From Roseithermus sacchariphilus (GTDB lineage Bacteria; Bacteroidota; Rhodothermia; Rhodothermales; MEBIC09517): a stretch of 64,000 nt of DNA. The position numbers and the translations under genes are program-made. The stretch's first letter is position 1, and every line of letters starts with the position of its first letter. Positions 3,461 to 26,159 of the stretch are shown in pieces. Under the pieces are notes generated by a model, which worked only from the letters and a program-made list of their open reading frames with translations, did not search any database and had not been told where the DNA came from. Location of the stretch: assembly GCA_003285105.1 (NCBI GenBank), contig CP030158.1, forward strand, positions 851,447-915,446, read 5' to 3'.

Positions 3461-3695
3461 GCCTGATGGCCTGGAGAGGCCGTCTGGACGGCCCCACACC
3501 GCCGGCAGCCACGCGCACACACCGCCTTCATTCCAGCCAGACCCCGGCGATGTCGCCGCCGCGCCGGGCCGCGTCTCCGGGCTGCGTCGTGAGCGCGTCG
3601 TACGGCCTCGAAGCCGTGCATGCCGCCTGAACCGGGCGTTGCCATCCGTACATCCATTTTTCGCCATCCCACATCGCCCAGCGCCGAACGGCCCC

Positions 3696-5042
3696 ATGGA
3701 CATCCGAGGAAAAGCGACACGCATCCATCTGTTCAACGTCAGCACCCCGCAGATGCGGGCGTTCCATCTGTCGTGGTTCGCCTTCTTCCTGTGCTTCTTC
3801 GCCTGGTTTGGCATGGCCCCGCTCATGAAGGTGGTGCGCGAGGAACTGGGGCTGACCCCGGCTCAGGTGGGCAACACCATCATCGCCTCCGTGGCCGTCA
3901 CCATCCTCGCCCGGCTCGGCATCGGCTGGCTGTGTGACCGCTTCGGGCCGCGCCTCACCTACACCTGGCTGCTCGTCCTCGGGGCCCTGCCCGTGATGGG
4001 GATCGGGCTGGCCCATGATTACCAGACGTTCCTGTTCTTCCGCCTGCTGATCGGCTTCATCGGTGCCAGTTTCGTCATCACGCAGTACCACACCTCCATC
4101 ATGTTCGCGCCCAACGTCGTCGGCACCGCCAACGCAACGTCGGCCGGCTGGGGAAACCTCGGCGGGGGCGTCACCCAGATGGTGATGCCGCTGCTGTTCG
4201 CGGGGATGGTCGGGCTCGGAGCCAGCGAGGCCCTCGGATGGCGCCTCTCGATGGTGGTGGCCGGCCTGGTGTGCATGGCCACGGGCGTAGCCTACTATTT
4301 CCTGACGCAGGATACCCCGGAGGGCAACTTCAAAGACCTGCGGGCACGGGGCATCGAGATCGGCTCGAAGGCCTCGACCCGGGGCACCTTCCTGATGGCC
4401 TGCAAGGACTACCGCGTCTGGGCGCTCTTCTTCGTGTATGCCGCCTGCTTCGGCATCGAACTGACCATCAACAACGTCGCGGCCCTGTACTTCGCCGACT
4501 ACTTCACGCTCGACCTGACGACGGCCGGCACCGTGGCCGCGCTCTTCGGGCTGATGAACATCTTTGCCCGGACACTCGGCGGCATCTTCGGCGACCGGTT
4601 CGGGGCCAGAAAGGGGTTGCGGGGGCGCGTGCAGTGGCTCTTCATCGCCCTCCTGGTGGAGGGCTTCGCGCTGATGTTGTTTTCGCGGATGGAGGCCCTG
4701 CCCACGGCCGTCGCCACGCTGATCTTCTTCAGTCTGTTCGTGCAGATGTCCGAAGGGGCGACCTTCTCCGTCGTGCCGTTCATCAACAAGAAAGCCCTTG
4801 GCTCGGTGGCCGGGATCGTCGGGGCGGGCGGCAACTTCGGGGCCGTGCTGGCGGGCTTCCTGTTCAAGGGCTCCGTGGCCTGGCCGACGGCCTTTCTCAT
4901 CCTCGGCGGCATCGTCACCGGCACAGCGTTCCTGGCCCTCGCCGTGCGCTTCTCCGAAGCCGACGAGCGGGCTGCCCGCGAAGAACGAGAAGCCCGGCTC
5001 CGCGAGAGCGAAACCGCGGCGGCGCTGCCGGCGATGGCATGA
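3696..5042 (+). CDS. narK: Nitrate/nitrite transporter, MFS family (NNP/NarK).
   Basis: MDIRGKATRIHLFNVSTPQMRAFHLSWFAFFLCFFAWFGMAPLM..., with about 12 transmembrane segments and the NNP signature. The ATG at 3696 was verified in-frame inside ORF 3459..5042. Confidence 0.9.
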   Translation: MDIRGKATRIHLFNVSTPQMRAFHLSWFAFFLCFFAWFGMAPLMKVVREELGLTPAQVGNTIIASVAVTILARLGIGWLCDRFGPRLTYTWLLVLGALPVMGIGLAHDYQTFLFFRLLIGFIGASFVITQYHTSIMFAPNVVGTANATSAGWGNLGGGVTQMVMPLLFAGMVGLGASEALGWRLSMVVAGLVCMATGVAYYFLTQDTPEGNFKDLRARGIEIGSKASTRGTFLMACKDYRVWALFFVYAACFGIELTINNVAALYFADYFTLDLTTAGTVAALFGLMNIFARTLGGIFGDRFGARKGLRGRVQWLFIALLVEGFALMLFSRMEALPTAVATLIFFSLFVQMSEGATFSVVPFINKKALGSVAGIVGAGGNFGAVLAGFLFKGSVAWPTAFLILGGIVTGTAFLALAVRFSEADERAAREEREARLRESETAAALPAMA

Positions 5043-5164: not shown

Positions 5165-6937
5165 ATGCAGCCGTTCAGCGAAGAGCAGAAACAGTACCTG
5201 CAGGGCTTTATGGCCGGCGTCGTGCAGCGCGGTGGGTTGCCCTTTGCCGGACAGACCCCGGACGGGCGCATCACCCACGCCCCGGAGGCGGCCGAACGCG
5301 ACCTGGCCGACCCCGGCATCGACCAGCTCTACGGCACCCCCGTCGAGGAGCTGAGCAAGCAGGAGCGGATCAAGCTGGAGAAGAACCCGCATGCGATGTG
5401 GGACGACGTGCTGGCACACGCTGCGGCCGGCACGATGCCCGAGGGCGATGACATCTTCCGCTACAAAGCCTTGGGGCTGTTCAACGTGGCCCCCGTGCAG
5501 GACGGCTTCATGCTGCGCTGTCGTATTCCCGGCTGTATGCTGCGGGCCGATCAGCTGCGCGGCCTGGCCGACCTGGCCGACGCCTACGGGGCCGGCTACG
5601 GCGACGTCACCACCCGCGGCAACATCCAGCTCCGCGAGATCAAACCCCGCCACGCCGCCGATGTGCTCATCGGTCTCTACGACATCGGGCTGACCTCAAA
5701 GGGTGCCGGGGCCGACAACCTCCGCAACATCACCGCCTCGCCAACGGCCGGCTTCGACCCCCAGGAGGTGTTCGACGTGCGCCCGCTGGCCCGGGCCATG
5801 CATCACTACATCCTTCACAGCCCCGACCTCTACGGCCTGCCGCGCAAGTTCAACATCGCCTTCGACGGCGGCGGCCGCGTCAGCGTAGCGGCGGACACGA
5901 ACGACCTCGGCTTCATGGCCGTCCGGGTGGACGAGGGCGCGGGCGTCGAGCCGGGCGTCTACTTCCGCATCGAGCTGGGCGGCGTCACCGGGCATGGGGC
6001 CTTTGCACACGATACCGGCTTCATGGTGCGGCCCGAACAGTGTGTGGCCGCCGCTGCCGCCGTGGTGCGGGTCTACCTCGAACACGGCGACCGGACCAAC
6101 CGCAAGAAGGCCCGCCTGAAGTATCTGCTGGAAGCCTGGGGCACCGACCGGTTCATGGCCGAAGTGCAGAACCGCCTCGCCTTCGAACTGACGGCCCTGC
6201 CCCGTGCGCGGTGTGCTCCACGCCCGCCGGTGGTGCGCCACAGTCACATCGGCTTTCATCCGCAGAAACAGGCCGGCAGGTACTACGTCGGGGTGGTGGT
6301 GCCGGTGGGCCGCATGACCTCCGCCCAGATGCGCGGCCTGGCCGACATCGCCGCCCGCTACGGCTCCGGCGACCTCCGCCTGACCATCTTCCAGAACGTG
6401 CTGATCCCGGACCTTTCCGAGGCGGACGTGGAAGCCGTCCAGGACGCCCTCCGAGACCTCGGCTTTCACTACGAGACCGAGGACGTCCGCAGCGGCCTGG
6501 TGGCCTGCACGGGCGCGGCCGGATGCCCGTATGCCAACACCCATACCAAGGAGCACGCCCTGACCCTCGGCGAGTACCTGGCCGCGCAGGTCCCCATGGA
6601 CCAGCCGATCAACATCCACTTCACCGGCTGCCCGAACTCGTGCGCCCAGCACTACTGCGGCGACATCGGCCTGCTGGGTGTGCCGGTCAAGCGGGAGGAT
6701 GGCACCCGCGTAGACGGCTGCACCATCGTCCTCGGCGGGGGCATGGACCAGGACCAGGGGCTCGCCCGCGAGTTGGTCCGCAGCCTCCCGTTCGACGAGG
6801 TCCCCCCGTTGCTGGCCCACGTGCTGAAGACCTACCTCCGCGAGCGGACCGGCCAGGAGTCCTTCACGGCCTTTACCCGCCGCCACGACACCGACACGCT
6901 CCGCAGCCTCTTCCTCGATTCCTTCCAGGCGATATGA
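5165..6937 (+). CDS. nirA: Assimilatory nitrite (or sulfite) reductase hemoprotein of the siroheme/[4Fe-4S] NirA family. It carries an N-terminal CysJ-like docking motif.
   Basis: Cys cluster CTGAAGCPYANT...HFTGCPNSCAQHYCGDIGLLG, with duplicated nitrite/sulfite reductase ferredoxin-like halves. The gene sits in a nitrate-assimilation context. Confidence 0.88.
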   Translation: MQPFSEEQKQYLQGFMAGVVQRGGLPFAGQTPDGRITHAPEAAERDLADPGIDQLYGTPVEELSKQERIKLEKNPHAMWDDVLAHAAAGTMPEGDDIFRYKALGLFNVAPVQDGFMLRCRIPGCMLRADQLRGLADLADAYGAGYGDVTTRGNIQLREIKPRHAADVLIGLYDIGLTSKGAGADNLRNITASPTAGFDPQEVFDVRPLARAMHHYILHSPDLYGLPRKFNIAFDGGGRVSVAADTNDLGFMAVRVDEGAGVEPGVYFRIELGGVTGHGAFAHDTGFMVRPEQCVAAAAAVVRVYLEHGDRTNRKKARLKYLLEAWGTDRFMAEVQNRLAFELTALPRARCAPRPPVVRHSHIGFHPQKQAGRYYVGVVVPVGRMTSAQMRGLADIAARYGSGDLRLTIFQNVLIPDLSEADVEAVQDALRDLGFHYETEDVRSGLVACTGAAGCPYANTHTKEHALTLGEYLAAQVPMDQPINIHFTGCPNSCAQHYCGDIGLLGVPVKREDGTRVDGCTIVLGGGMDQDQGLARELVRSLPFDEVPPLLAHVLKTYLRERTGQESFTAFTRRHDTDTLRSLFLDSFQAI

Positions 6938-7530
6938 TACCCCGGATCCCCGACCAGGCCCCGTTCAGCCGCGAACAGCGGGCCTGGCTCAACGGCTTCT
7001 TCGCCGGACTCTACTCGGTGCAGGCCGTGGACGGCCTCGTGCCCGACGCCCCTGCTCCCCCGACCCGCTCGGTGACCGTGCTGTTCGGCTCCCAGACCGG
7101 CACCGCAGAAGGCCTCGCGCGGAAAACGGTCAACGCGCTGAAGGCGCAGGGCTTTGCCGCCTCGGCCTGCGAACTCGACACCATGACCCCGGCCGATCTG
7201 GTGGATGTGCACCACCTGCTGGTCATTACGAGCACGTACGGCGACGGAGAGATGCCGGACAACGCGCAGATCTTCTGGGAGGCCCTTTCGGCCGAGGATG
7301 CGCCGCGCCTGGAGCAGACCGCTTTTGCCGTCTGTGCCCTCGGTGACAGCAGCTACCCCGACTTCTGCCAGGCCGGCAAGGACATCGATGCCCGCCTCGA
7401 AGCACTCGGGGCGCGGCGCCTTTTCCCCCGTGCCGATTGCGACATCGACTACGAAGCCGTCTTCGCCGGATGGCTCGAAGGCGTCTGCGAGGCCCTGAAC
7501 GTGCCCAGCGGAGACGGCGCCCTCGTCTGA
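6934..7530 (+). CDS. Flavodoxin-like FMN-binding protein, equivalent to the N-terminal half of CysJ. The start overlaps the nirA stop in an ATGA arrangement.
   Basis: VLFGSQTGTAEGLARK...HLLVITSTYGDGEMPDNA flavodoxin signature. N-terminal motif APFSREQRAWLNGFFAGL. Confidence 0.8.
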   Translation: MIPRIPDQAPFSREQRAWLNGFFAGLYSVQAVDGLVPDAPAPPTRSVTVLFGSQTGTAEGLARKTVNALKAQGFAASACELDTMTPADLVDVHHLLVITSTYGDGEMPDNAQIFWEALSAEDAPRLEQTAFAVCALGDSSYPDFCQAGKDIDARLEALGARRLFPRADCDIDYEAVFAGWLEGVCEALNVPSGDGALV

Positions 7531-7635
7531 GCCGACCGGCGAGGACGAGGCGGAGCGCCTCTGCCGCCCCCGGCTCCCACGACGCAGGCACCGAGCCTCC
7601 CGCCACCTGATCCCGTAGCCTCTCCCTGCTGCCCC

Positions 7636-8961
7636 ATGCCGCACCTGGTCCCGTATCTCCCCGACGATGCCCCCTTCTCCGCGGAGCAGCGCGCATGGCT
7701 CAACGGCTTCTTCGCCGGATGGAGCACCCGCGCCCGGAGCGGGGACGGCGCAGCGCTGTACCCGCCTCCCGGTGGCGACGGCCAGCCGCCGGCCGGTGAC
7801 GGGCAGGCCCGTGGCTGGCCGGTACCGGCCGACCCGCCCCCCCCGCACTACAGCCGCACACACCCCTTCCCGGCTCGGCTCCGTACCAACCGCCCGCTCA
7901 ACGCCGCAGGCTCCGCCAAAGACGTCCGCCACCTCGAGATTGACCTGGACGGCTCCGGGCTGACCTACGAGGCGGGCGACGCGCTCGGCGTGATCCCTCA
8001 GAACTGCCCGGCCTACGTGGAGAACCTGATCGACGCCCTCGGCTGGCGCGGAGACGAGCCGGTCGTGATCGACGGCGCCTCGATGCCCCTGCGCGAGGCC
8101 CTGCAGACACGCCTGACGATCACGCAGCCGCCCCGGGCCTTGCTCGATGCCTACGCCGAACGCAGCAACGACGACGCCCTGACCCACCTCCTCGAGGACC
8201 GGCAGACGCTGCACGACTTCCTCCGGGGCCGTGACGTGCTGGACCTGGTCCTGCGCTATCCCGCCGTCCGGTTCGAACCGCAATCCTTCGTGGATCTGCT
8301 GCGGCCGCTCCAGCATCGGCTCTACTCCATCTCCTCCAGTCCCCGCGCCCACCCCGGCGAGGTCCACCTGACCGTGGGCTGTGTGCGCTACGAAGCCCAC
8401 GGGCGCCTCCGCAAGGGCGTCTGCTCCACCTTCCTCGCCGAGCGGTGCGCGCCCGAGGACCCCCTCCCGGTGTTCGTCCACCCCAATACCACGTTCCGCT
8501 TGCCGGCCGACACCGACACCCCCATCATCATGATCGGCCCGGGAACGGGGATCGCCCCCTTCCGGGGCTTTCTCTACGAACGCCGGGCAACGGGCGCACG
8601 AGGCAAAAACTGGCTCATCTTCGGGGATCAGCACGCCGCCACGGATTTCCTCTACCGGGACGAACTGGAAGGCTTCCTCCAGGACGGCACGCTGGACCGC
8701 CTGGACCTGGCCTGGTCGCGAGACGGCGCCGAGAAGGTCTACGTGCAGCACCGCCTGCGAGAGCACGCCCGCACGCTTTTCGACTGGCTCGAGGACGGCG
8801 CGGTCCTCTACGTCTGCGGGGACGCCGCCCGCATGGCCAGAGACGTGGACGCCGCCCTGCACGACGTCCTCCGCACCGCCGGGGCCTTGAGCGAGGAGGC
8901 CGCTGCCGCCTACGTGACGCAACTCAAACAGGCCAGGCGCTACCTGCGCGATGTGTACTGA
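7636..8961 (+). CDS. FAD/NADPH-binding oxidoreductase of the ferredoxin-NADP reductase family, equivalent to the C-terminal half of CysJ.
   Basis: RLYSISSSP (RxYS FAD motif), GPGTGIAPFRGFL (NADPH site), C-terminal YVCGDAARMARDV. N-terminal motif APFSAEQRAWLNGFFAGW. Confidence 0.85.
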   Translation: MPHLVPYLPDDAPFSAEQRAWLNGFFAGWSTRARSGDGAALYPPPGGDGQPPAGDGQARGWPVPADPPPPHYSRTHPFPARLRTNRPLNAAGSAKDVRHLEIDLDGSGLTYEAGDALGVIPQNCPAYVENLIDALGWRGDEPVVIDGASMPLREALQTRLTITQPPRALLDAYAERSNDDALTHLLEDRQTLHDFLRGRDVLDLVLRYPAVRFEPQSFVDLLRPLQHRLYSISSSPRAHPGEVHLTVGCVRYEAHGRLRKGVCSTFLAERCAPEDPLPVFVHPNTTFRLPADTDTPIIMIGPGTGIAPFRGFLYERRATGARGKNWLIFGDQHAATDFLYRDELEGFLQDGTLDRLDLAWSRDGAEKVYVQHRLREHARTLFDWLEDGAVLYVCGDAARMARDVDAALHDVLRTAGALSEEAAAAYVTQLKQARRYLRDVY

Positions 8962-9043: not shown

Positions 9044-12000
9044 ATGAACAGACCGCCCGAACAGACCGTCCAGACCACCTGCTGCTACTGCGGCGTCGGA
9101 TGCGGCGTCACGGTGACGCGCCACCGCGACGGGCGCCTCTCGCTCCGGGGCGACGAGGACCATCCAGTGAACCGGGGGCAGCTCTGCAGCAAAGGCCGCT
9201 ACCTGCACCACGTAGCCATGGACCGGAGCGACCGGCTGCTCCATCCGCTGCTCCGGCACCGCCGCACCGAACCGCTGCGACGGGTGGGGTGGGACGAAGC
9301 GCTGGAGTATACGGCCGGCGTCTTCCGCGGCTTCATCGAGGCCCATGGCCCCCGCTCGGTCGGGTTCTACGTGTCCGGGCAACTCCTCACCGAGGAGTAC
9401 TACCTCGCCAACAAGCTGATGAAAGGCTTCATCGGCGCCAACAACATCGACAGCAACTCCCGGCTGTGCATGAGCTCGGCCGTGACGGGCTACAAGCTCG
9501 CCCTGGGCGACGATACGCCCCCCTCTGCTACGAGGACATCGAGGCCTGCGCCTGCTTCTTCATCGCCGGCGCCAACCCGGCCTGGTGCCACCCGATCCTG
9601 TTCCGCCGCCTCGAAGCCCACAAACAACGCCACCCCGACGTCAGGATCATCGTGGCCGATCCGCGCCGGACGCAATCCTGCGCGCTGGCCGACCTGCACC
9701 TCCCGCTCCGGCCCGGCACGGACATCGTCCTCTTCAACGCCATCGCCGCCTACCTTATCGAACACGACCTCATCGACCGGCCCTTCCTGGAGGAGCACAC
9801 CGTCGGCTTCGACGCCTGCAAGGCGGCCGTGGAGGGGCTCACGCTGGAGCAGGCCGCCGCCACCTGCGGGGTACCGGCCGAGGACCTGCGGCAGGCCGCG
9901 CAATGGATTGGAGAAAGCCCGACCATGATGACGATGTGGGCGATGGGGCTGAACCAGAGCGAACGGGGTACGGACAAGAACCTGGCGCTGCTGAACCTCT
10001 CGCTGCTCACCGGCAAAATCGGCAAACCGGGGTGCGGGCCGTTCTCGCTGACGGGCCAGCCCAATGCCATGGGCGGCCGGGAAGTCGGCGGGCTGGCCAA
10101 CCTGCTGGCCTGCCACCGCGACCTGGCCAACCCCCACCATCGCGCCGAGGTGGCCGCCTTCTGGGGAGTCGATGCCATCGACGCGCAACCGGGGCTGACG
10201 GCGACGGAGATGGTGGCGGCGATGGAGCGCGGCACGCTCAAGGCGATCTGGATCATCGGAACCAACCCGGCCGTCTCGATGCCCGACCTCCAGCGGCTCG
10301 AACGGGCCATGGCCACCTGCGAGTACGTCGTCGTGCAGGAGATCTCCGAACGGGCCGAAACGCTCCGCTTTGCCGACTGTGTCCTGCCGGCGGCGGCCTG
10401 GCTGGAAAAAGAGGGGACGATGACCAATTCCGAGCGGCGCATCACCTACCTGCCCGCCCTCATCGATCCGCCGGGCGAAGCCCTGCCGGATGCCGAGATC
10501 CTCTGCCGCTTTGCCGACGCGATGGGCTGGGGAGCCGCCTTCAACTATGCCGGCACGGCCGAGATCTTCGACGAATATCGCCGCCTCACCCGCGGCACGC
10601 CCATCGACATCTCCGGCCTCAGCTACGACCGGTTGCAGCGTGAACGCTCGGTGCAATGGCCCTGCCCCGCCGACGACCATCCCGGCACGCCGCGCCTGTT
10701 CACGGACGGCCGATTCTGGACCGACGACGGGAAAGCCCGCCTCCACGGCGTCTCTCCGGCCCCCCTGCCCGAACCGCCGGACGACACGTTCCCCCTCATC
10801 CTCACCACCGGCCGCCTCCGCGACCAGTGGCATACCCGGACCAAGACCGGCAAGGTCAACCGCCTCAACCAGCATCAGCCGGTGCCGCTGCTGGAAATCC
10901 ACCCGGACGATGCCCTGCCCCTCGGCCTGAAGGACGGCGCCACGGCACGGGTCCGCAGCCGCTTCGGCGCGGTCGAGGTCCGCACGACGCTCAGCGATGC
11001 CATCCGCCCCGGCACCGTCTTCCTGCCCATGCACTGGGGCACCCTGCCCGGCGGACGCGATGGGCGGGCCAACCTGGCTACCAGCCCTCGCGTCGACGCC
11101 CGCTCCCGGCAGCCCGACTTCAAGTACACCGCCGTCCGCATCGAGCGGGTCGCCAAGAAAAAGGAGCGCATCCTCGTCGTCGGTGCCGGAGCGGCCGCGC
11201 GCCACTTCGTGGAAACGTACCGCCGGTACAACACGGAGGACGAGATCCACGTCTTCGGGCGCGAGCCGCACGGGTTCTATAACCGCATCCTGCTCCCCGA
11301 CTACATCGGCGGCGAGCGCACGTGGGCCTCCCTCTCCACGATGAACGAGGCCACCACTCGCGCCCTCTCCCTGCACCTGCACCTCGGGGTCGAGATCGTC
11401 AAGATCGACCGCGCCGCCCGCACCATCGAAGACGCCAGCGGAACGCGCTATCCCTACGACAAGCTGTTGCTCTGCACCGGCAGCCGGGCCTTCGTGCCGG
11501 CCGGCGTACCGATGGGGTGGGACGGGGTCTTCAGCCTGCGTACCCGTTGGGATGCCGACCGCATCAAACACTACCTCGAACCCGGTGCCCGCGTGTTGAT
11601 CATGGGGGGCGGCTTGCTCGGGCTCGAGATGGCCGCGGCCCTGCACCACGCCGGCTTCCGTGTGACGATCCTCGAGATGGCCGACCGCCTCATGCTACGC
11701 CAGCTCGACCCCACGGCCAGCGCCCTTCTGCAGGACGAACTCGAAGACCGCGGCATCGAGGTGTGCTGCGGAGACGTGGCGGTGGACTACCTCGGCCACG
11801 GACGCATCCGCGGTGTGCTCACCCGGGCCGACCGCCACCTCGCCTGCGATGCCCTCATCGTGGCCGTGGGCACCCGCCCGAACATCGGCCTCGCCGTCCG
11901 CGCCGGCCTCCATCACAGCCGCGGCGTGACGGTCAACGACCACCTGCAGACGAGCGACCCGTGCATCTACGCCGCCGGAGAGATTGCCGAGCACCGGAGC

Positions 12001-12606
12001 GAGCTCTACGGGATTACCCCGGCGGCCGAGGAACAGGCCGCCGTCGCCGCCGCGCACATGGCCGGGGACGCCTGGGCGGCCTATGACGGCTCGGTGCCCT
12101 TCAACATCCTCAAGATCCAGGGGCTCGATGTGTGCGCCCTCGGCCGCTCGGTCGTCCCCGAAGACGAGGCCGCGCTCTACGACGAGATCGTCTTTCTGGA
12201 CCGGCGCCGGCGGGTCTACAAGAAATGCGTGGTGCAACAGGACCGGCTCGTCGGCGCGATCCTCGTGGGCGACCGGGCCGAGTTCGACACCTTCCGCCGC
12301 CTCATCGATACCGGCGTCGAACTGGAAGAGCAACGCGGGACCCTGCTGGGCGGGGCCGCGGCCGGGCACGCCGTCTCCCCACCGCTCGGGCGGCTCGTCT
12401 GCAGCTGTATGCACGTCGGCGAGGGCAACCTCCGGCAGTTCATTGCCGACGGATGCACGGACCTGCCAACCCTGTGCAACCGGAGCCGGGCCGGCACCGG
12501 CTGTGGCAGCTGCCGCCCCGAGGTCCAGATGATCCTGGAGCACGAGCTGACCCTGATGGCCACGGCCGAGGGAGACGGCAGCACCGGCGTCCCGGCCCTG
12601 ACGTGA
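9044..12606 (+). CDS. nasA: Assimilatory nitrate reductase catalytic subunit (molybdopterin) fused to a NirB-like FAD/NAD(P)H oxidoreductase and a BFD-like [2Fe-2S] domain. The reading frame is interrupted by an apparent single-base (-1) frameshift at 9518-9523.
   Basis: N-terminus MNRPPEQTVQTTCCYCGVGCGV ([4Fe-4S] MopB). The N-terminal part is in frame 2 (ORF 8951..9928), and the protein continues in frame 1 (ORF 9100..12606) from PLCYEDIEACACFFIAGANPAWCHPI. The C-terminal third carries ILVVGAGAAARHF...LLCTGSRAFVP...GEIAEHR (pyridine nucleotide-disulfide oxidoreductase) and CSCMHVGEG...CGSC (BFD). Confidence 0.85.
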
Positions 12607-13415: not shown

Positions 13416-14384
13416 TCAGTTGAACAGCACGACAACGGCACGTGCCGCATCGCCTTCCAGCACCGGAAAGCCGATGGCCGCCTCCAGCCCGGCGCGGGCA
13501 GCGGCTTCGCAGCGCACGAAGCCGGCCTCCCGCGTGAGCCGCTCGAACACGACGGGCATCCGGTCGGCAAAGACGCGCCCCGGCAACCCTACCCCCGGCT
13601 CGAACGTGGTGGCCCGGCTGACGGCCTCGAATGCAGACAGCCGGCCGTAGTATCCCGCCGTTAACCTCAGCGTGCCATCCCGGCCCGGCTGCCAGATCTC
13701 CATGACACGCGCCATGGGCGTGGCTGCGGAGGTCAGCAGCAGGAGCACCCGGCGCACACCGTCGGCATCCAGCACCGGAATGCCGAGCCCCGCGCTCAAG
13801 CCGGCGGCCGCCGCCGCCCCGGCACGGACGAAGCCGCGCTCCCCGGACAGGCTCTCGAACAACACCGGCATCCGCGCCGCAAGGACCTGCCCGGGCAGCC
13901 CCACACCCCGCGCAAACGTCGTCGCACGGCTGAGGGCCTCAAAGGCCTGCATCTCTCCGTAAAAGCCATCCTCCCATTCCATGCGTGTGCCGTCGGGGCT
14001 GCATCGCCAGATCTCGAAGGCCCCGGCCCCCGCCTCCGACGCGGCGAACAGCAGCGTCACCACCGCTTCCACCTCCTCGCCATGCAGCACCGGCAGCCCC
14101 ACCCCCGCGCTGAAGCCCGACCGAGCCGCGACCTCGGGCCGCACGAAGCCTCGATACAGGGTCAGGTCTTCGAGGATCATCGGAGCTTTGCGCAGCAGCA
14201 CCTGCCCGGCCAGCCCCTGCCCTCGGGCGACACGGACCGGCAAGGCAGCCCGCGACCCGGGCTCGCCGCCCCGATAAAAGCCGGCCTGGAAATGCAGGCT
14301 GGTGCGTTCTCTGTCGGGAATCCACACTTCCATGGCCCGCACCAGCGAGGGAGGTCGCCGTTTCACCGAAGAACGAGCACGCAT
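13416..14384 (-). CDS. Protein made of three tandem GAF-like domains with no output domain.
   Basis: Three repeats of about 100 aa: MEIWxPxxDGTLRLTAGYYG...FEAxSRATTFxxGVGLPGxVxxxRMPVxFExL..ExGFVRxxAAxxAGLxAxxGxPVL. An alternative start lies at about 14333 (MEVWIP...). Confidence 0.75.
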   Translation of the reverse strand: MRARSSVKRRPPSLVRAMEVWIPDRERTSLHFQAGFYRGGEPGSRAALPVRVARGQGLAGQVLLRKAPMILEDLTLYRGFVRPEVAARSGFSAGVGLPVLHGEEVEAVVTLLFAASEAGAGAFEIWRCSPDGTRMEWEDGFYGEMQAFEALSRATTFARGVGLPGQVLAARMPVLFESLSGERGFVRAGAAAAAGLSAGLGIPVLDADGVRRVLLLLTSAATPMARVMEIWQPGRDGTLRLTAGYYGRLSAFEAVSRATTFEPGVGLPGRVFADRMPVVFERLTREAGFVRCEAAARAGLEAAIGFPVLEGDAARAVVVLFN

Positions 14385-22349: not shown

Positions 22350-24107
22350 CTACCGGCGCTCCGCGCCGACCTGCCGCACCCTGATCGTCTCGGCGGGCGT
22401 GCCGACGGTCTTCATGACCCGCACCGGAAATTGCCCCAGTCCCTCCATCTGGAGGTTCGGGCGACCGGCCAGTTCGATCAGCGGCGGGCTCGGGCCGCCC
22501 TGGCCGTGGGAGTCTACCCACAGGTAGAACGCCCCGTCCAGGACCCCCCGCACCCACAACCTGTTGCCGCTCGCCGCCGTTTCTCGCTTGATGGCGGCCA
22601 CGATGCGGTGCAGGGGCGTATCGCCCGGCGCGTCGATCTCCAGACGAGCGCCGGGGGGCAGGGCGTTGTCTTCAGGGGCGTACGGCGCTTCGGCTCCCTC
22701 GACGATCATCCGGCACCCCGGCACCGGGCTCGGGAGCGCCTCCGTGCCGTCGGCCGGGAAGCGCAGGGTCACCGTCGTTCCCCCCTGCACCGGGACCGTT
22801 TTGGTGATGCTCGTGATGTGGGGGGTCCGGCGTCGCTTCATCACTGTCGCCAGCGCTTCCATCACGGCGGTATACCCTTCGAGCGGCAGCCGCAAGGAGC
22901 CCATGCCTTCGGCCGAGTAGTGACGGGGCACGGGATAGTGCCGGCCCCGCAGCGGCTTCAGGCCGAGCGCATCCAGGTACCGCGCGTCTTCGGGATGCAG
23001 GTCCGTGCGATTCTCCAGCGTCACCCCTTCCATCCAGCCCGCCGCCTGGATGGTTCTGGGGATGCCCGGATCCAGGGTTTCCTCCATCAGCGCATCGAAG
23101 AACGTGGGCTGGTTGTGTACCAGACGGCAGATCTGGAGCCAGTCCTCGAAGTAGCTGACGCCGAACTGCTCGCCCATCTGCCCGAGGATGCTGAGGTAGC
23201 CCCAGGGGCCTTCGTCCAGGCGGAAGGCGATGTACTTGTCGCCGTCCACCCGTTCCCAGGGCTTCAGGTTGAAGAAGGACCGGGCCACGGCGAAGAAGGC
23301 GCGCAGCGTGGCCTCGTCCTCGCCTACGAACCGGGGCGCTTCTTCGCTCTCGAACTGCTGCTGGATCTCGTCGAAGACATCATCGAGCAGCGGGGTGGCG
23401 CCCACTGTCACGGGGATGCCGACACGCCGCATCGGCCCCTGCAACCGGCCGACCAGGTCGGCGCCGGCCACGCGGAGTTGCTGCGGGCGGCCCGGATGCC
23501 CGCTCATGCTGTGGACCGCCGCCCGGTAGACCACGGCCTCCAGCTCCTCCGACGTGGCCGGCGCTCCGTGCTTGAGGTGTATCTGCCGGACCGCGCGGGT
23601 GCCTTCTTCCATGACCAGCACGATGTAGACGCGTTGCGGATCGCCGGCCTCGTCGTAGACCCAGCCGCCGGGCTGCTCCCCGATCTGCCAGGCGTGGGGC
23701 AACGGCTCCAGCGCCGCCACCTCCTCGGGCGTGGGCGGGGGCTCTTCCAGTCTCCGGCGCATCTCCTGCCCCGCCCGGGCATAGACCGACCACGGCATGG
23801 GCGGATGATCCATGTCCAGCCAGAGCCCGGCCTGCACCGGCTCCTCACCCACGCGAAAGCCCCGGATGTCGGCCGGATCCCAGCCCTCTTCGGCCATCAC
23901 CGCTTCGACGAGCCCCATCGGCGCCAACCACCGGGCCTCGTCTTCGTCGTAGATCAGGTCGACCTCGACCTCGACCGTCTCGTCCGGTCCGTCGATGGAT
24001 ATCCAGGTCGCCTCCAGATACATCGCCCCGGCGGCCTGAAGTAACCGGAACAGGTTGGCTTCATTGATCCACAGCAGGTCCCGATGCGACCCGTTGGTGT
24101 GCTTCAT
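22350..24107 (-). CDS. Hypothetical protein (about 585 aa) with no recognisable domains.
   Basis: Long ORF with coding-like GC3. Start taken at the internal Met MKHTNGSHRDLLW. It lies upstream, same strand, of the Rad52-like gene. Confidence 0.55.
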   Translation of the reverse strand: MKHTNGSHRDLLWINEANLFRLLQAAGAMYLEATWISIDGPDETVEVEVDLIYDEDEARWLAPMGLVEAVMAEEGWDPADIRGFRVGEEPVQAGLWLDMDHPPMPWSVYARAGQEMRRRLEEPPPTPEEVAALEPLPHAWQIGEQPGGWVYDEAGDPQRVYIVLVMEEGTRAVRQIHLKHGAPATSEELEAVVYRAAVHSMSGHPGRPQQLRVAGADLVGRLQGPMRRVGIPVTVGATPLLDDVFDEIQQQFESEEAPRFVGEDEATLRAFFAVARSFFNLKPWERVDGDKYIAFRLDEGPWGYLSILGQMGEQFGVSYFEDWLQICRLVHNQPTFFDALMEETLDPGIPRTIQAAGWMEGVTLENRTDLHPEDARYLDALGLKPLRGRHYPVPRHYSAEGMGSLRLPLEGYTAVMEALATVMKRRRTPHITSITKTVPVQGGTTVTLRFPADGTEALPSPVPGCRMIVEGAEAPYAPEDNALPPGARLEIDAPGDTPLHRIVAAIKRETAASGNRLWVRGVLDGAFYLWVDSHGQGGPSPPLIELAGRPNLQMEGLGQFPVRVMKTVGTPAETIRVRQVGAERR

Positions 24108-24304
24108 GATTCGGACCTTCGTTCGTGCCTGGCAGAGCCGGGGCTGCCGCCCCGCAGGGCTGCCGCCCGTCGTGTAGCAGATCTTCGATAGTGTAGCGGA
24201 TTTCCGGATGCCGGGCAATCCCGCGCGCAGAAGATCGACGGCCGAAGGCCGGGAGGAAACCCGGAGGCCCGACCTCCGCCCGTCGCCCGCGGGTCACGGG
24301 GCGA

Positions 24305-24844
24305 TCAGTGGCTTGCGAGGCGGCGGGGGGGCGGGTAGGGCGCCTCGGCGCCGTGGCCGTTGCGGGCGGGCGCCGAGGCCGCGGGGCGGGACGGCGCCGG
24401 GCGAAACGCCGGTGGCAGCTGCGGCGGTTGCCGGAAGCGCCCTCGCTCGTCCACGGCCACCCATTGCGGCGGCATGCGGTAGAGGTAGCGCCCGATGCCC
24501 CATTGCGAGGCGGCGCGCTTCATCGAGCCACTCAGCCCGCCCTTGATGGCCTCCACGTCGGTGTTTTCTGCGCCGTCCCACTTCGTCACCCACTCGGCCG
24601 AGCCGTCCGCCCGTTCCACGTAGATCGCGATGCCGCAGAGCACCCCACCGGCGGGCCCGGCCATGAACTCGTTGCGCCAGTCCGCCGGCCCACACACCTC
24701 ATCGAGGCGGTCCTGGATGGCGCGGTTGGTGACGTACGCCGCGACGAGGCTCTTGCCGGTGCGTTTCGACGTCGTGATCGGCTTCCACTCGAGATCTTCC
24801 GGGTCGAAAAAGGCCTGGAGCTTGTACAAATCGGCAGCTTTCAT
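24305..24844 (-). CDS. Rad52/Rad22-family single-strand annealing protein (phage-type recombinase).
   Basis: MKAADLYKLQAFFDPEDLEWKPIT...AAYVTNRAIQDRLDEVCGPADWRNEF...GVLCGIAIYV...DGAENTDVEAIKGGLSGSMKRAASQWGIGRYLYRMPPQWV matches the conserved Rad52 N-terminal annealing domain. Start taken at the internal Met of ORF 24305..25165. Confidence 0.75.
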   Translation of the reverse strand: MKAADLYKLQAFFDPEDLEWKPITTSKRTGKSLVAAYVTNRAIQDRLDEVCGPADWRNEFMAGPAGGVLCGIAIYVERADGSAEWVTKWDGAENTDVEAIKGGLSGSMKRAASQWGIGRYLYRMPPQWVAVDERGRFRQPPQLPPAFRPAPSRPAASAPARNGHGAEAPYPPPRRLASH

Positions 24845-24995
24845 GGTGCGATCGGGAGTCGTTGGGGTGTCGAACGAACGGGGCCGCGGTCGGCCGGCAG
24901 CGGACCGCCTGCGGATAGCCTGCGGACCGCCCCGGGCCGTCGGCTGACGGCTGAACGGAAACCTAGAACATCGGGGTGACAACCCCGTGTCAGCA

Positions 24996-25105
24996 GGACG
25001 TTGCCCCCGGGACATTGCCCCCGGGACATTGCCCCCGGGACATTGCCCCCGGGACATTGCCCCCGGGACGTTGCCCCCGGGACGTTGCCTCCGGGACATT
25101 GCCCA
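24996..25105. repeat. Tandem direct repeat, 15-bp unit GGGACRTTGCCCCCG, about 7 copies.
   Basis: Seen directly: ggacgttgcccccgggacattgcccccgggacattgcccccggg... It lies in the divergent intergenic region between the Rad52-like gene (-) and yihY (+). Confidence 0.9.
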
Positions 25106-25121
25106 CCCACCGATCCGAGCC

Positions 25122-26159
25122 ATGACGTACAGGGATTTCGTTGCTCTGCTCAAGGAGACCACCACCGAGTGGATCGACGACCGGGCGCCGCAGATGGGCG
25201 CGGCGCTGGCCTACTACACCTTGTTTTCCATCGCGCCGATGCTGCTCATCATCGTGGCCGCCGTCGGCTTTGTCTGGGGCGCCCAGCCGGAAGCGGTGCA
25301 GGAGCAGGTGCTGGCACAGGTGGAGGCGCTGGTCGGGGCCGACGGGGCGACGCTGGTGCAGACCATGCTGGAGCGCACCAGCCGGCCGGCCTCGGGGCTG
25401 CTGGCGACGGCCATCGGCCTGGCCATGCTGCTCTTCGGGGCCACGACGGCCTTCGCGCAGCTCCAGACGGCCCTCAACCAGATCTGGGAGGTGGAGCCCC
25501 GGCCGGGCCAGGGGATCAAGGGGTTCGTGCGGACGCGGCTGCTCTCGTTCGCCATGATTCTGTTGATGGGGGCCCTGCTGCTCGTCTCGCTCGTCATCAG
25601 CACGGCGCTGGCCGCGGTGGACGAAGCCTGGATGGGGGGGATTCCTGGCTCGAAGGGGCTGCTCTATGTGCTGGACGTGGCGCTCTCGCTCGGAGTGCTG
25701 AGCGTGCTGTTTGCCCTTCTCTTTCGCTACCTGCCGGACGTGAACATCGCCTGGCGGGACGTGTGGGTCGGTGCGGGGATCACGGCGCTGCTGTTTCTTC
25801 TCGGGCGGTATGCCCTGGGGTGGTACCTGGGGCGGGGGAGCGTGTCGTCGGCCTACGGAGCGGCCGGGTCGCTGGTGGTGTTGCTGTCGTGGATCTACTA
25901 CTCCAGCCTCATTCTCTTCTTCGGCGCCGAGTTCACGCAGGTCTATGCCCGACGCTACGGCTCCCGCATCCGCCCCGCCGCCTATGCCGTCCGCATCGGG
26001 GCGCCTCTGTCGCCGCCGGCACCGGCCGTGACCAACCCGGCACCCCGGCCTCTTCCCCCACCGGCACCGTCCCGCCGGTCGGGCCGCAGCCGCTGGAAGC
26101 AGATCGGGTTGCTGCTGCTGGCCTTCTGGATCGGCCATCGCTGGGGACGACGGGGCTGA
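25122..26159 (+). CDS. yihY: YihY/BrkB-family inner-membrane protein.
   Basis: MTYRDFVALLKETTTEWIDDRAPQMGAALAYYTLFSIAPMLLI... with 6 transmembrane segments. Start is downstream of the repeat array. Confidence 0.85.
   Translation: MTYRDFVALLKETTTEWIDDRAPQMGAALAYYTLFSIAPMLLIIVAAVGFVWGAQPEAVQEQVLAQVEALVGADGATLVQTMLERTSRPASGLLATAIGLAMLLFGATTAFAQLQTALNQIWEVEPRPGQGIKGFVRTRLLSFAMILLMGALLLVSLVISTALAAVDEAWMGGIPGSKGLLYVLDVALSLGVLSVLFALLFRYLPDVNIAWRDVWVGAGITALLFLLGRYALGWYLGRGSVSSAYGAAGSLVVLLSWIYYSSLILFFGAEFTQVYARRYGSRIRPAAYAVRIGAPLSPPAPAVTNPAPRPLPPPAPSRRSGRSRWKQIGLLLLAFWIGHRWGRRG

Follow-up and report, generated by a model that had tools for sequence, protein, structure and literature searches.

In the NADPH sulfite reductase (SiR) of Escherichia coli, the siroheme/[4Fe-4S] hemoprotein CysI is fed by the FAD/FMN reductase CysJ, the SiR flavoprotein (SiRFP), in which an octamerization peptide is followed by a flexible tether and then by the flavodoxin (Fld) and FNR domains. 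The SiRFP octamer requires the N-terminal peptide of CysJ (residues 1-51/52), which is also sufficient for octamer formation and oligomerizes SUMO, and the joint substitution of Gln22, Tyr39, Phe40, and Gln47 breaks the octamer (Stroupe laboratory preprint, bioRxiv 10.64898/2026.04.08.717228). Within the E. coli octamer, Fld and FNR interact across subunits, and CysI binds the FNR domain via its own unrelated N-terminal 80 residues (PMC11195156). Bacterial NirA is routinely assumed to be ferredoxin dependent, e.g., in B. japonicum and P. aeruginosa (PMC4724949, PMC12688703), and no description of a NirA-CysJ-type nitrite reductase or of a shared peptide was found in the open-access library searched. 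In this study, we analyzed a 64,000-nt stretch of the Roseithermus sacchariphilus genome (contig CP030158.1, positions 851,447 to 915,446; hereafter, the window), in which nirA is followed by genes for a stand-alone CysJ-type flavodoxin (fld) and a stand-alone FNR-like reductase (fnr). The three proteins share an N-terminal peptide, through which we consider it somewhat likely that they assemble with one another. The new elements are a CysJ-type reductase that would serve NirA, a hemoprotein that bears the oligomerization peptide of the reductase, and a reductase split into two genes with the peptide duplicated.

All three genes lie on the plus strand. The nirA gene (positions 5165 to 6937; ATG at 5165 and TGA at 6937) encodes the siroheme/[4Fe-4S] nitrite reductase hemoprotein of 590 aa, fld (6934 to 7530; ATG at 6934 and TGA at 7530) encodes the flavodoxin or FMN module of 198 aa, and fnr (7636 to 8961; ATG at 7636 and TGA at 8961) encodes, as its own gene, the CysJ-like C-terminal half, an FAD/NAD(P)H reductase of 441 aa; we hold these component assignments with high confidence. 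The nirA stop and the fld start overlap as ATGA at 6934-6937, which recalls the adjacent, overlapping genes of CysJ/CysI, and a spacer of 105 nt separates the TGA of fld from the ATG of fnr. The N-termini of NirA (MQPFSEEQKQYLQGFMAGV), Fld (MIPRIPDQAPFSREQRAWLNGFFAGL), and FNR (MPHLVPYLPDDAPFSAEQRAWLNGFFAGW) all open with the motif PF-S-x-EQ-[KR]-x-[WY]-L-x-GF-x-AG. A regular expression for this motif found exactly three sites in the six frames of the window, all of them the N-termini of these genes; the first-pass annotation, which had reported a single N-terminal motif on three consecutive genes and translational coupling of the first two through ATGA, was thus accurate on both points.

The NirA-type copy of the peptide (PFSEEQKQYLQGFMAG) comprises residues 3-18 (positions 5171 to 5218, plus strand; 38.7 bits with the hidden Markov model [HMM] described below). 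The flavoprotein-type copy on Fld (PFSREQRAWLNGFFAG) comprises residues 10-25 (6961 to 7008, plus strand; 48.1 bits), and a second flavoprotein-type copy (PFSAEQRAWLNGFFAG) is located on the FNR half at residues 13-28 (7672 to 7719, plus strand; 48.3 bits). In FNR, the peptide is followed by a Pro/Gly-rich tether at residues 29-69 (7720 to 7842, plus strand), which is supported by the composition (11 Pro and 8 Gly in 43 residues) and by the low confidence of the structure prediction. The remainder of the NirA N-terminal extension (residues 19-60; 5219 to 5344, plus strand) is absent from cyanobacterial-type NirA, and its block GGLPFxGQTxDGRxTH is kept in a five-way NirA alignment and in 78 NirA N-termini. 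A stretch of 24 nt (TGGCTCAACGGCTTCTTCGCCGGA) is identical in the fld (6985-7008) and fnr (7696-7719) copies and is otherwise absent from the window. Within it lies the non-preferred glycine codon GGA, in a genome with very GC-rich third codon positions, and the identity is compatible with common descent of the fld and fnr copies or with gene conversion between them. Read from the sequences, the core of the peptide is an aromatic pair inside GxxxG, i.e., G38-Y-F-W-G42 in E. coli CysJ, G-F-F-A-G in the flavoproteins of the window, and G-F-M-A-G in NirA. GxxxG is a classical motif of close helix packing.

We searched 11,420 six-frame open reading frames (ORFs) of 86 nirA-containing loci (~1.5 Mb) with an HMM that models the motif in 24 positions. 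The scores are bimodal, with a background that is almost entirely below 5 bits, and the 161 matches of at least 15 bits are on NirA (79), fused Fld-FNR (58), Fld (13), and FNR proteins (9) and on contig-end fragments (2). The peptide is N-terminal in all of the 120 best homologues of the window Fld, stand-alone and fused, and is degenerate in approximately 20 of them and canonical in the rest, so the reservation that the motif might be a generic low-complexity feature absent from homologues was not borne out. The consensus is IPxxAPF[ST]xEQRAWLNGFLAGLFS for the flavoproteins and F[ST]xEQK[EQ]YLxGFxAGVxQRG..PFVGQT for the 78 NirA N-termini. In the NirAs of three phyla and two metagenomic contigs, E7, Q8, Y11, L12, G14, and G18 are invariant, and the peptides fall into two steady flavors, with K/Y/Q in NirA and R/W/N in the flavoproteins. 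A search of 1.84 billion representative sequences with the peptide profile returned 986 protein clusters at 50% identity, mostly contig-end fragments, and no clearly new carrier architecture was seen among the best 150 matches. On the minus strand of locus L058 (3953-4159), a second ORF, truncated by the end of the contig, opens with a NirA-flavor peptide (PFSLEQKEYLQGLFAG) and may encode another tagged hemoprotein of that genome.

The resemblance of the peptide to the CysJ N-terminus, which the first-pass annotation had noted, holds when the peptide is compared by itself. With the Fld domain removed, 214 flavoprotein N-termini were aligned by hhalign to 42 Enterobacterales CysJ N-termini, collected as short fragments in a homologue search with residues 1-80 of E. 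coli CysJ, and gave a probability of 93% (P = 2.8e-7). The alignment places F11-A31 of the flavoprotein profile on L28-P48 of E. coli CysJ, the stretch that contains Tyr39, Phe40, and Gln47. The BLASTP alignment of Fld with E. coli CysJ is collinear through the peptide and pairs Q15 with Q32, and the TIGR01931 profile matches Fld starting at residue 12. The NirA and flavoprotein peptide profiles align with each other over 24 columns (hhalign probability, 97.7%; P = 1.5e-12), and judged from their sequences the two types are homologous; the match of the NirA profile to the E. coli CysJ type is weaker (P = 1.3e-4). E. coli CysI has no motif match. The N-terminus of NirA thus resembles the flavoprotein peptide, unlike that of CysI. 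A PDB sequence search did not find a solved chain that contains the CysJ N-terminal peptide; all constructs are truncated. By eye, residues 11-48 of E. coli CysJ (locus L086, 4100-5899, minus strand) can be read as two tandem units, LPLNPEQLARLQ and DLTPTQLAWVSGYFWG, each of which resembles the single PF[ST]xEQRAWLNGF unit of the flavoprotein family of the window.

Fld contains the Pfam domain Flavodoxin_1, and FNR contains FAD_binding_1 and NAD_binding_1. Residues 15-189 of Fld align with residues 32-206 of E. coli CysJ at 38% identity, and residues 72-441 of FNR align with residues 231-599 at 48% (BLASTP), which agrees with the earlier view of the two genes as separately encoded halves of CysJ. 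Both score below the cutoff of the CysJ family TIGR01931 (668 bits; Fld, 167 bits, aligned to profile positions 22-203; FNR, 499 bits). Fld is also below the cutoff of every flavodoxin/MioC family (best, MioC, 87 bits versus 158), and its top match is the N-terminal half of CysJ. FNR exceeds the cutoff of NF004859 (502.6 bits versus 432) in two stretches, the better of which places residues 65-441 on profile positions 165-539. The proteins of this family (PRK06214, "sulfite reductase subunit alpha," ~520-540 aa) resemble the window FNR in joining an N-terminal peptide to FNR and are also found beside nirA in five loci (L034, L035, L057, L060, and L079); unlike it, they have a DCGQCGYLC...C domain between the two, whereas the window FNR has a Pro/Gly-rich tether without this Cys-rich motif and is accompanied by a separate flavodoxin.

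Outside its own clade, the window FNR is most closely related to fused Fld-FNR proteins of 580-650 aa (53-64% identity), and the split here looks secondary, i.e., a fission of the fused gene. All of the 109 fused relatives have a single N-terminal peptide. All of the 11 split FNR proteins, including that of the window, have their own copy, which is of the flavoprotein flavor (RAWLNG) and not of the NirA flavor and which leads into a new Pro/Gly-rich tether (~40 residues in the window FNR). The two-gene form occurs in the window, in Rhodothermus profundi, in one Rhodothermia metagenome-assembled genome (MAG; L006), and in approximately 10 close metagenomic FNRs of 431-465 aa, and Salinivenus (L007) of the same phylum has a fused gene. 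One gene fission in a Rhodothermia ancestor with duplication of the peptide onto the FNR half is the simplest history. The order narK-nirA-fld-fnr-nasA is kept in R. profundi and in the Rhodothermia MAG, in line with the assignment of fld and fnr to nitrate assimilation. A relay from FAD to FMN is common to the Fpr/FldA pair of E. coli and to diflavin reductases such as cytochrome P450 reductase (CPR), nitric oxide synthase, and P450 BM3; those partners have no common tag, whereas both halves in the window keep the peptide. Diflavin reductases are presumed to have arisen from stand-alone Fld and FNR proteins.

NirA contains the Pfam domains NIR_SIR and NIR_SIR_ferr and belongs to NCBIfam NF007126 (PRK09567, "NirA family protein"; 840 bits, cutoff 523); the match extends over residues 2-583 on profile positions 5-587 and includes the N-terminal extension. 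The hemoprotein fold and chemistry are those of the ferredoxin-nitrite reductase NirA of cyanobacteria and plants (EC 1.7.7.1; NF007125/PRK09566). The score with that family is 376 bits, below the cutoff of 594, and its profile covers residues 61-555 only, so that the 60-residue, peptide-bearing extension is outside it; another difference is that the neighbor of the window nirA is a flavoprotein gene and not a ferredoxin-supplied system. The scores for the CysI families TIGR02041 (146 bits, cutoff 756) and PRK13504 (192 bits, cutoff 457) and for NirBD (TIGR02374; 37 bits, cutoff 578) are far lower, and NirA has no Pyr_redox domain. The closest match to NirA is from the Rhodothermia MAG (81% identity). 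The anion-site motif is LPRKFN in NirA versus LPRKFK in E. coli CysI, and the five-way NirA alignment shows no variation at K228, F229, or N230. At this site, nitrite reductases have Lys-x-Asn and sulfite reductases Lys-x-Lys. The K-F-N site and the presence of narK and nasA in the cluster both point to nitrite as the substrate, and a sulfite-reductase function was rejected on the basis of this site and the nitrate-assimilation context. Three features that define sulfite reductase are missing from the system of the window: its flavoprotein is not a single chain, its hemoprotein is not of the CysI type, and its anion site is not of the sulfite type.

Scanning one genome per species (GTDB) with the NirA alignment yielded 80 loci, which span Verrucomicrobiota, Acidobacteriota, Rhodothermia, Stellaceae, Alcaligenaceae, Pirellulales, a spirochaete, and 'Candidatus Cybelea' and are in a nitrate-assimilation context for the most part. 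In 56 of them the partner of nirA is a peptide-bearing fused Fld-FNR gene, which substantiates the co-occurrence of nirA and the flavoprotein expected from the first-pass annotation. The partner is a peptide joined to a Cys-rich (FeS-like) domain and FNR in 5/80, a peptide-bearing flavodoxin only in 4/80, fragmented genes that resemble MAG frameshifts in 4/80, an FNR gene without a peptide match in one (L067), and a true two-gene split in one; the other nine, several of which are at contig ends, have none within the locus. The flavoprotein gene directly adjoins nirA in the majority of these 80 genomes, often with a 4-nt overlap and irrespective of the type of nitrate reductase. In the loci of three fused proteins, nirA adjoins the cysJ-like gene, with a 4-nt overlap in two of the three, and these clusters also hold a Mo nitrate reductase and a Fer4_11/DmsC membrane protein. 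The first-pass annotation had considered the architecture unusual, and this is correct for the split and for the duplicated peptide on the FNR half, which are rare; the pair of peptide-bearing NirA and flavoprotein is widespread in Verrucomicrobiota, Acidobacteriota, and others. The common unit is thus a SiR-like nitrite reductase of two components, and its annotation is only generic. The families to which the window proteins belong, NF007126 and (by score) NF004859, are not described as having a function of this NirA-CysJ kind. The fused "sulfite reductase subunit alpha" beside nirA in Verrucomicrobiota and Acidobacteriota agrees with the window in NirA family, peptide flavors, and cluster logic, and differs in being one polypeptide with one peptide and in that NasA is usually paired with the Fer4_11/DmsC membrane protein.

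Variants of this unit were also observed. In the five loci with NF004859-like proteins, a Cys-rich domain (PWHD...LMAAMAQLDCGQCGYLC...C) replaces the flavodoxin between peptide and FNR of the flavoprotein that adjoins nirA. It matches Pfam PF04060 (FeS) weakly (19.3 bits, cutoff 23) and looks like an electron-carrier module swapped behind the same tag. A Verrucomicrobiales clade (L002, L042, L062, L071, and L074) has nirA, peptide-bearing fld, Fer4/DmsC, and nasA and no FNR gene in the locus; its peptides are GF[ST]E[ED]QT.YLSGF in NirA and PFSG.Q[KR][MI]WLKG[FY]LD[GA] in Fld, both of which deviate together. In most Verrucomicrobiota and Acidobacteriota loci (L002, 8604-10202; L004, L005, L008-L031, and others), the Mo nitrate reductase has no NAD(P)H reductase, and its partner is a 530-700-aa protein in which a Fer4_11 four-cluster ferredoxin is fused to a DmsC-like membrane domain (NrfCD-like). 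Such a pairing suggests that this assimilatory enzyme receives electrons from a donor that is quinol linked or membrane bound. In two metagenomic fragments (P0416 and P0341), the C-terminal or middle region of NirA runs in frame into the flavoprotein peptide and the start of the flavodoxin; these are either NirA-CysJ-like fusions or frameshifted gene calls.

Single-chain AlphaFold2 (AF2) models were made from family alignments and were read through the predicted local distance difference test (pLDDT) and the predicted helices, not through coordinates. The Fld model (pLDDT 91) has a helix at residues 13-28, a stretch of lower confidence at 29-45 (pLDDT 55-77), and then the flavodoxin fold. The FNR model (pLDDT 90) has a helix at residues 16-34 and the FNR fold from approximately residue 70; between them, the tether has block means of 39-50 over residues ~31-60, with segments below 50 at 35-58. 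Both flavoproteins are thus predicted to have the same N-terminal layout of helix, disordered tether, and domain, which mirrors the order of octamerization peptide, tether, and Fld in E. coli SiRFP. That the same peptide stands on three unrelated folds argues against an intramolecular role.

In the scheme that we propose, electrons would pass from NAD(P)H, the presumed donor, to the FAD of the FNR protein, then to the FMN of the flavodoxin and the [4Fe-4S]-siroheme of NirA, where nitrite would be reduced to ammonium; i.e., NirA would be supplied by a CysJ-type diflavin reductase that is encoded by two genes in this lineage. Each protein would open with a helix of ~16-19 residues (P-F-S/T-x-E-Q-K/R-x-W/Y-L-x-G-F-x-A-G), followed by a flexible Pro/Gly/Ala-rich tether. 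The three kinds of helix may co-assemble into a single helical-bundle core, which would hold the three tethered catalytic modules at high local concentration. The transfer from FAD to FMN would then occur between polypeptides, and the flavodoxin would swing between the FNR module and NirA. The cross-subunit contacts of Fld and FNR in the E. coli octamer make such electron transfer in trans plausible.

We lean toward such a peptide-mediated hetero-assembly of NirA, Fld, and FNR. Its strongest argument is the duplicated peptide on the FNR half: FNR was re-supplied with the tag once it was a separate polypeptide, and the tag is most easily seen as keeping FNR in the assembly. The more general proposal, that the ~20-residue helix is a portable hetero-oligomerization tag and that a mixed bundle of the NirA and flavoprotein flavors recruits the hemoprotein, is plausible but is put forward more tentatively. 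If it is true, any tagged module (Fld, FNR, FeS-FNR, or NirA) would join the machine, the splitting of the reductase or the swap of a carrier domain without loss of function would be explained, and the assembly logic would differ from that of E. coli SiR, where CysI grips the FNR domain. Several observations weigh against co-assembly. The motif HMM gives E. coli CysJ only 2.9 bits, albeit in the right place (residues 29-45), and the prediction for the E. coli peptide is a helix-turn-helix that spans ~50 residues, as opposed to the single helix here. The FNR copy of R. profundi is without the GFxAG half (WLNDFFLQLAL). Residues 1-20 of Fld have a high pLDDT (88-92), possibly because the helix is packed against the Fld domain in the AF2 model. 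Approximately nine NirA loci have no nearby flavoprotein, and two of these (L020 and L024) are not at contig ends. The NirA and flavoprotein peptides consistently differ at K/R, Y/W, and Q/N, and each flavor could form its own homo-oligomer. This last point leads to the main rival, in which NirA, Fld, and FNR form only homo-oligomers and electrons are transferred in transient collisions between separate particles. The persistence of two distinct flavors across phyla would be expected from it, and in E. coli only the homo-octamerization of CysJ has been demonstrated. It leaves unexplained, however, why the split FNR regained a tag of the flavoprotein flavor and why the hemoprotein is tagged only in families with a tagged partner. 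In the Fld-only Verrucomicrobiales, moreover, the two flavors changed in concert (EQK to EQT and LQG to LSG in NirA; LNG to LKG and AG to DG in Fld), although this is a single lineage event. We regard the exclusive formation of homo-oligomers as unlikely.

A different donor is conceivable: NirA could be ferredoxin dependent, as is usually assumed for NirA-type enzymes (PMC4724949, PMC12688703), with Fld and FNR serving NasA or another acceptor and merely co-located. Some loci with a peptide-bearing NirA indeed have no flavoprotein nearby. The NasA of the window and of three other loci (L001, L006, and L007), however, has its own fused NAD(P)H/FAD/[2Fe-2S] reductase, which makes a separate Fld and FNR unnecessary for nitrate reduction, and the usual adjacency of the flavoprotein gene to nirA across the 80 genomes and the lack of a ferredoxin gene in the cluster render a ferredoxin-dependent NirA improbable. 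The peptide might also be an address label for attachment to a membrane or transporter, for a shared third partner, or for targeting to a compartment, given that microcompartment encapsulation peptides have this format (a short N-terminal helix with a linker, shared by several enzymes of a pathway) and that the N-terminus of eukaryotic CPR is a membrane anchor. Its hydrophobic stretch is ~11 residues with a low helical hydrophobic moment (0.05-0.37), shell or scaffold genes were not found in the loci examined, and the homologous E. coli peptide by itself makes a soluble octamer; an amphipathic membrane helix and an encapsulation peptide were rejected on these grounds, and an address label of any kind appears quite improbable. 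An artifact of assembly or sequencing, by which a single cysJ-like gene would be frameshifted, deserves mention in view of the 1-nt frameshift of nasA in the same window and of L018, L047, and L081, where Fld and FNR are in overlapping frames and the FNR piece is without a start or peptide; those three look like MAG frameshifts and were not counted as independent splits. In the window, the TGA of fld is followed by the spacer and then by an fnr gene with its own ATG, peptide, and new tether, and the recurrence of the two-gene, two-peptide form in R. profundi, the Rhodothermia MAG, and approximately 10 metagenomic FNRs effectively refutes an artifact.

The genes described above are part of a nitrate-assimilation cluster, narK-nirA-fld-fnr-nasA, which consists of five plus-strand genes between 3.7 and 12.6 kb with short gaps and is probably an operon. 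A scan for promoters and terminators stayed at the chance level, and no terminator signal across the cluster exceeded it, and an Rfam scan found one tRNA and nothing else. The first gene (3693 to 5042, plus strand) encodes a narK-like nitrate/nitrite transporter of the major facilitator superfamily (Pfam MFS_1, E = 1.5e-36), and R. profundi (L001) likewise has a gene of this type upstream of nirA, at the corresponding position. The last gene, nasA (9044 to 12606, plus strand), encodes an assimilatory nitrate reductase in which the Mo-bisMGD nitrate reductase is followed by a fused pyridine-nucleotide (NAD(P)H)/FAD reductase and a BFD-type [2Fe-2S] domain (Pfam). These domains are spread over two frames owing to a 1-nt indel in the six-C run at 9518-9523, which interrupts the reading frame; frame 2 reads ...LGDDTPP and frame 1 carries on as LCYEDIEACACFFIAG, whereas relatives have LGDDAPPICYDDIE in a single frame. 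Either the run contains a homopolymer sequencing error or the gene has recently become a pseudogene. Just downstream of nasA, a 322-aa tandem-GAF protein is encoded on the minus strand (13416-14384) and is a candidate small-molecule sensor or regulator of the cluster. Farther away (22353-25210, minus strand), a Rad52/Rad22-family single-strand annealing protein (301 aa) adjoins a 647-aa DUF7309/DUF6930 protein, a pair that suggests a phage-derived or mobile-element remnant.

If the peptides co-assemble, the window would represent a large class of NirA nitrite reductases that depend on NAD(P)H, occur across a broad phylogenetic range, and are now annotated as "ferredoxin-nitrite reductase" plus "sulfite reductase subunit alpha," and genome-based inventories of the nitrogen and sulfur cycles would be affected. 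For the SiR field, the class would be a natural experiment on the 50-year-old puzzle of why and how CysJ forms an octamer, in which the hemoprotein has acquired the tag and the splitting of the reductase was accompanied by a duplication of the tag. The peptides would also provide a short, natural set of tags for tethered multi-enzyme redox assemblies.

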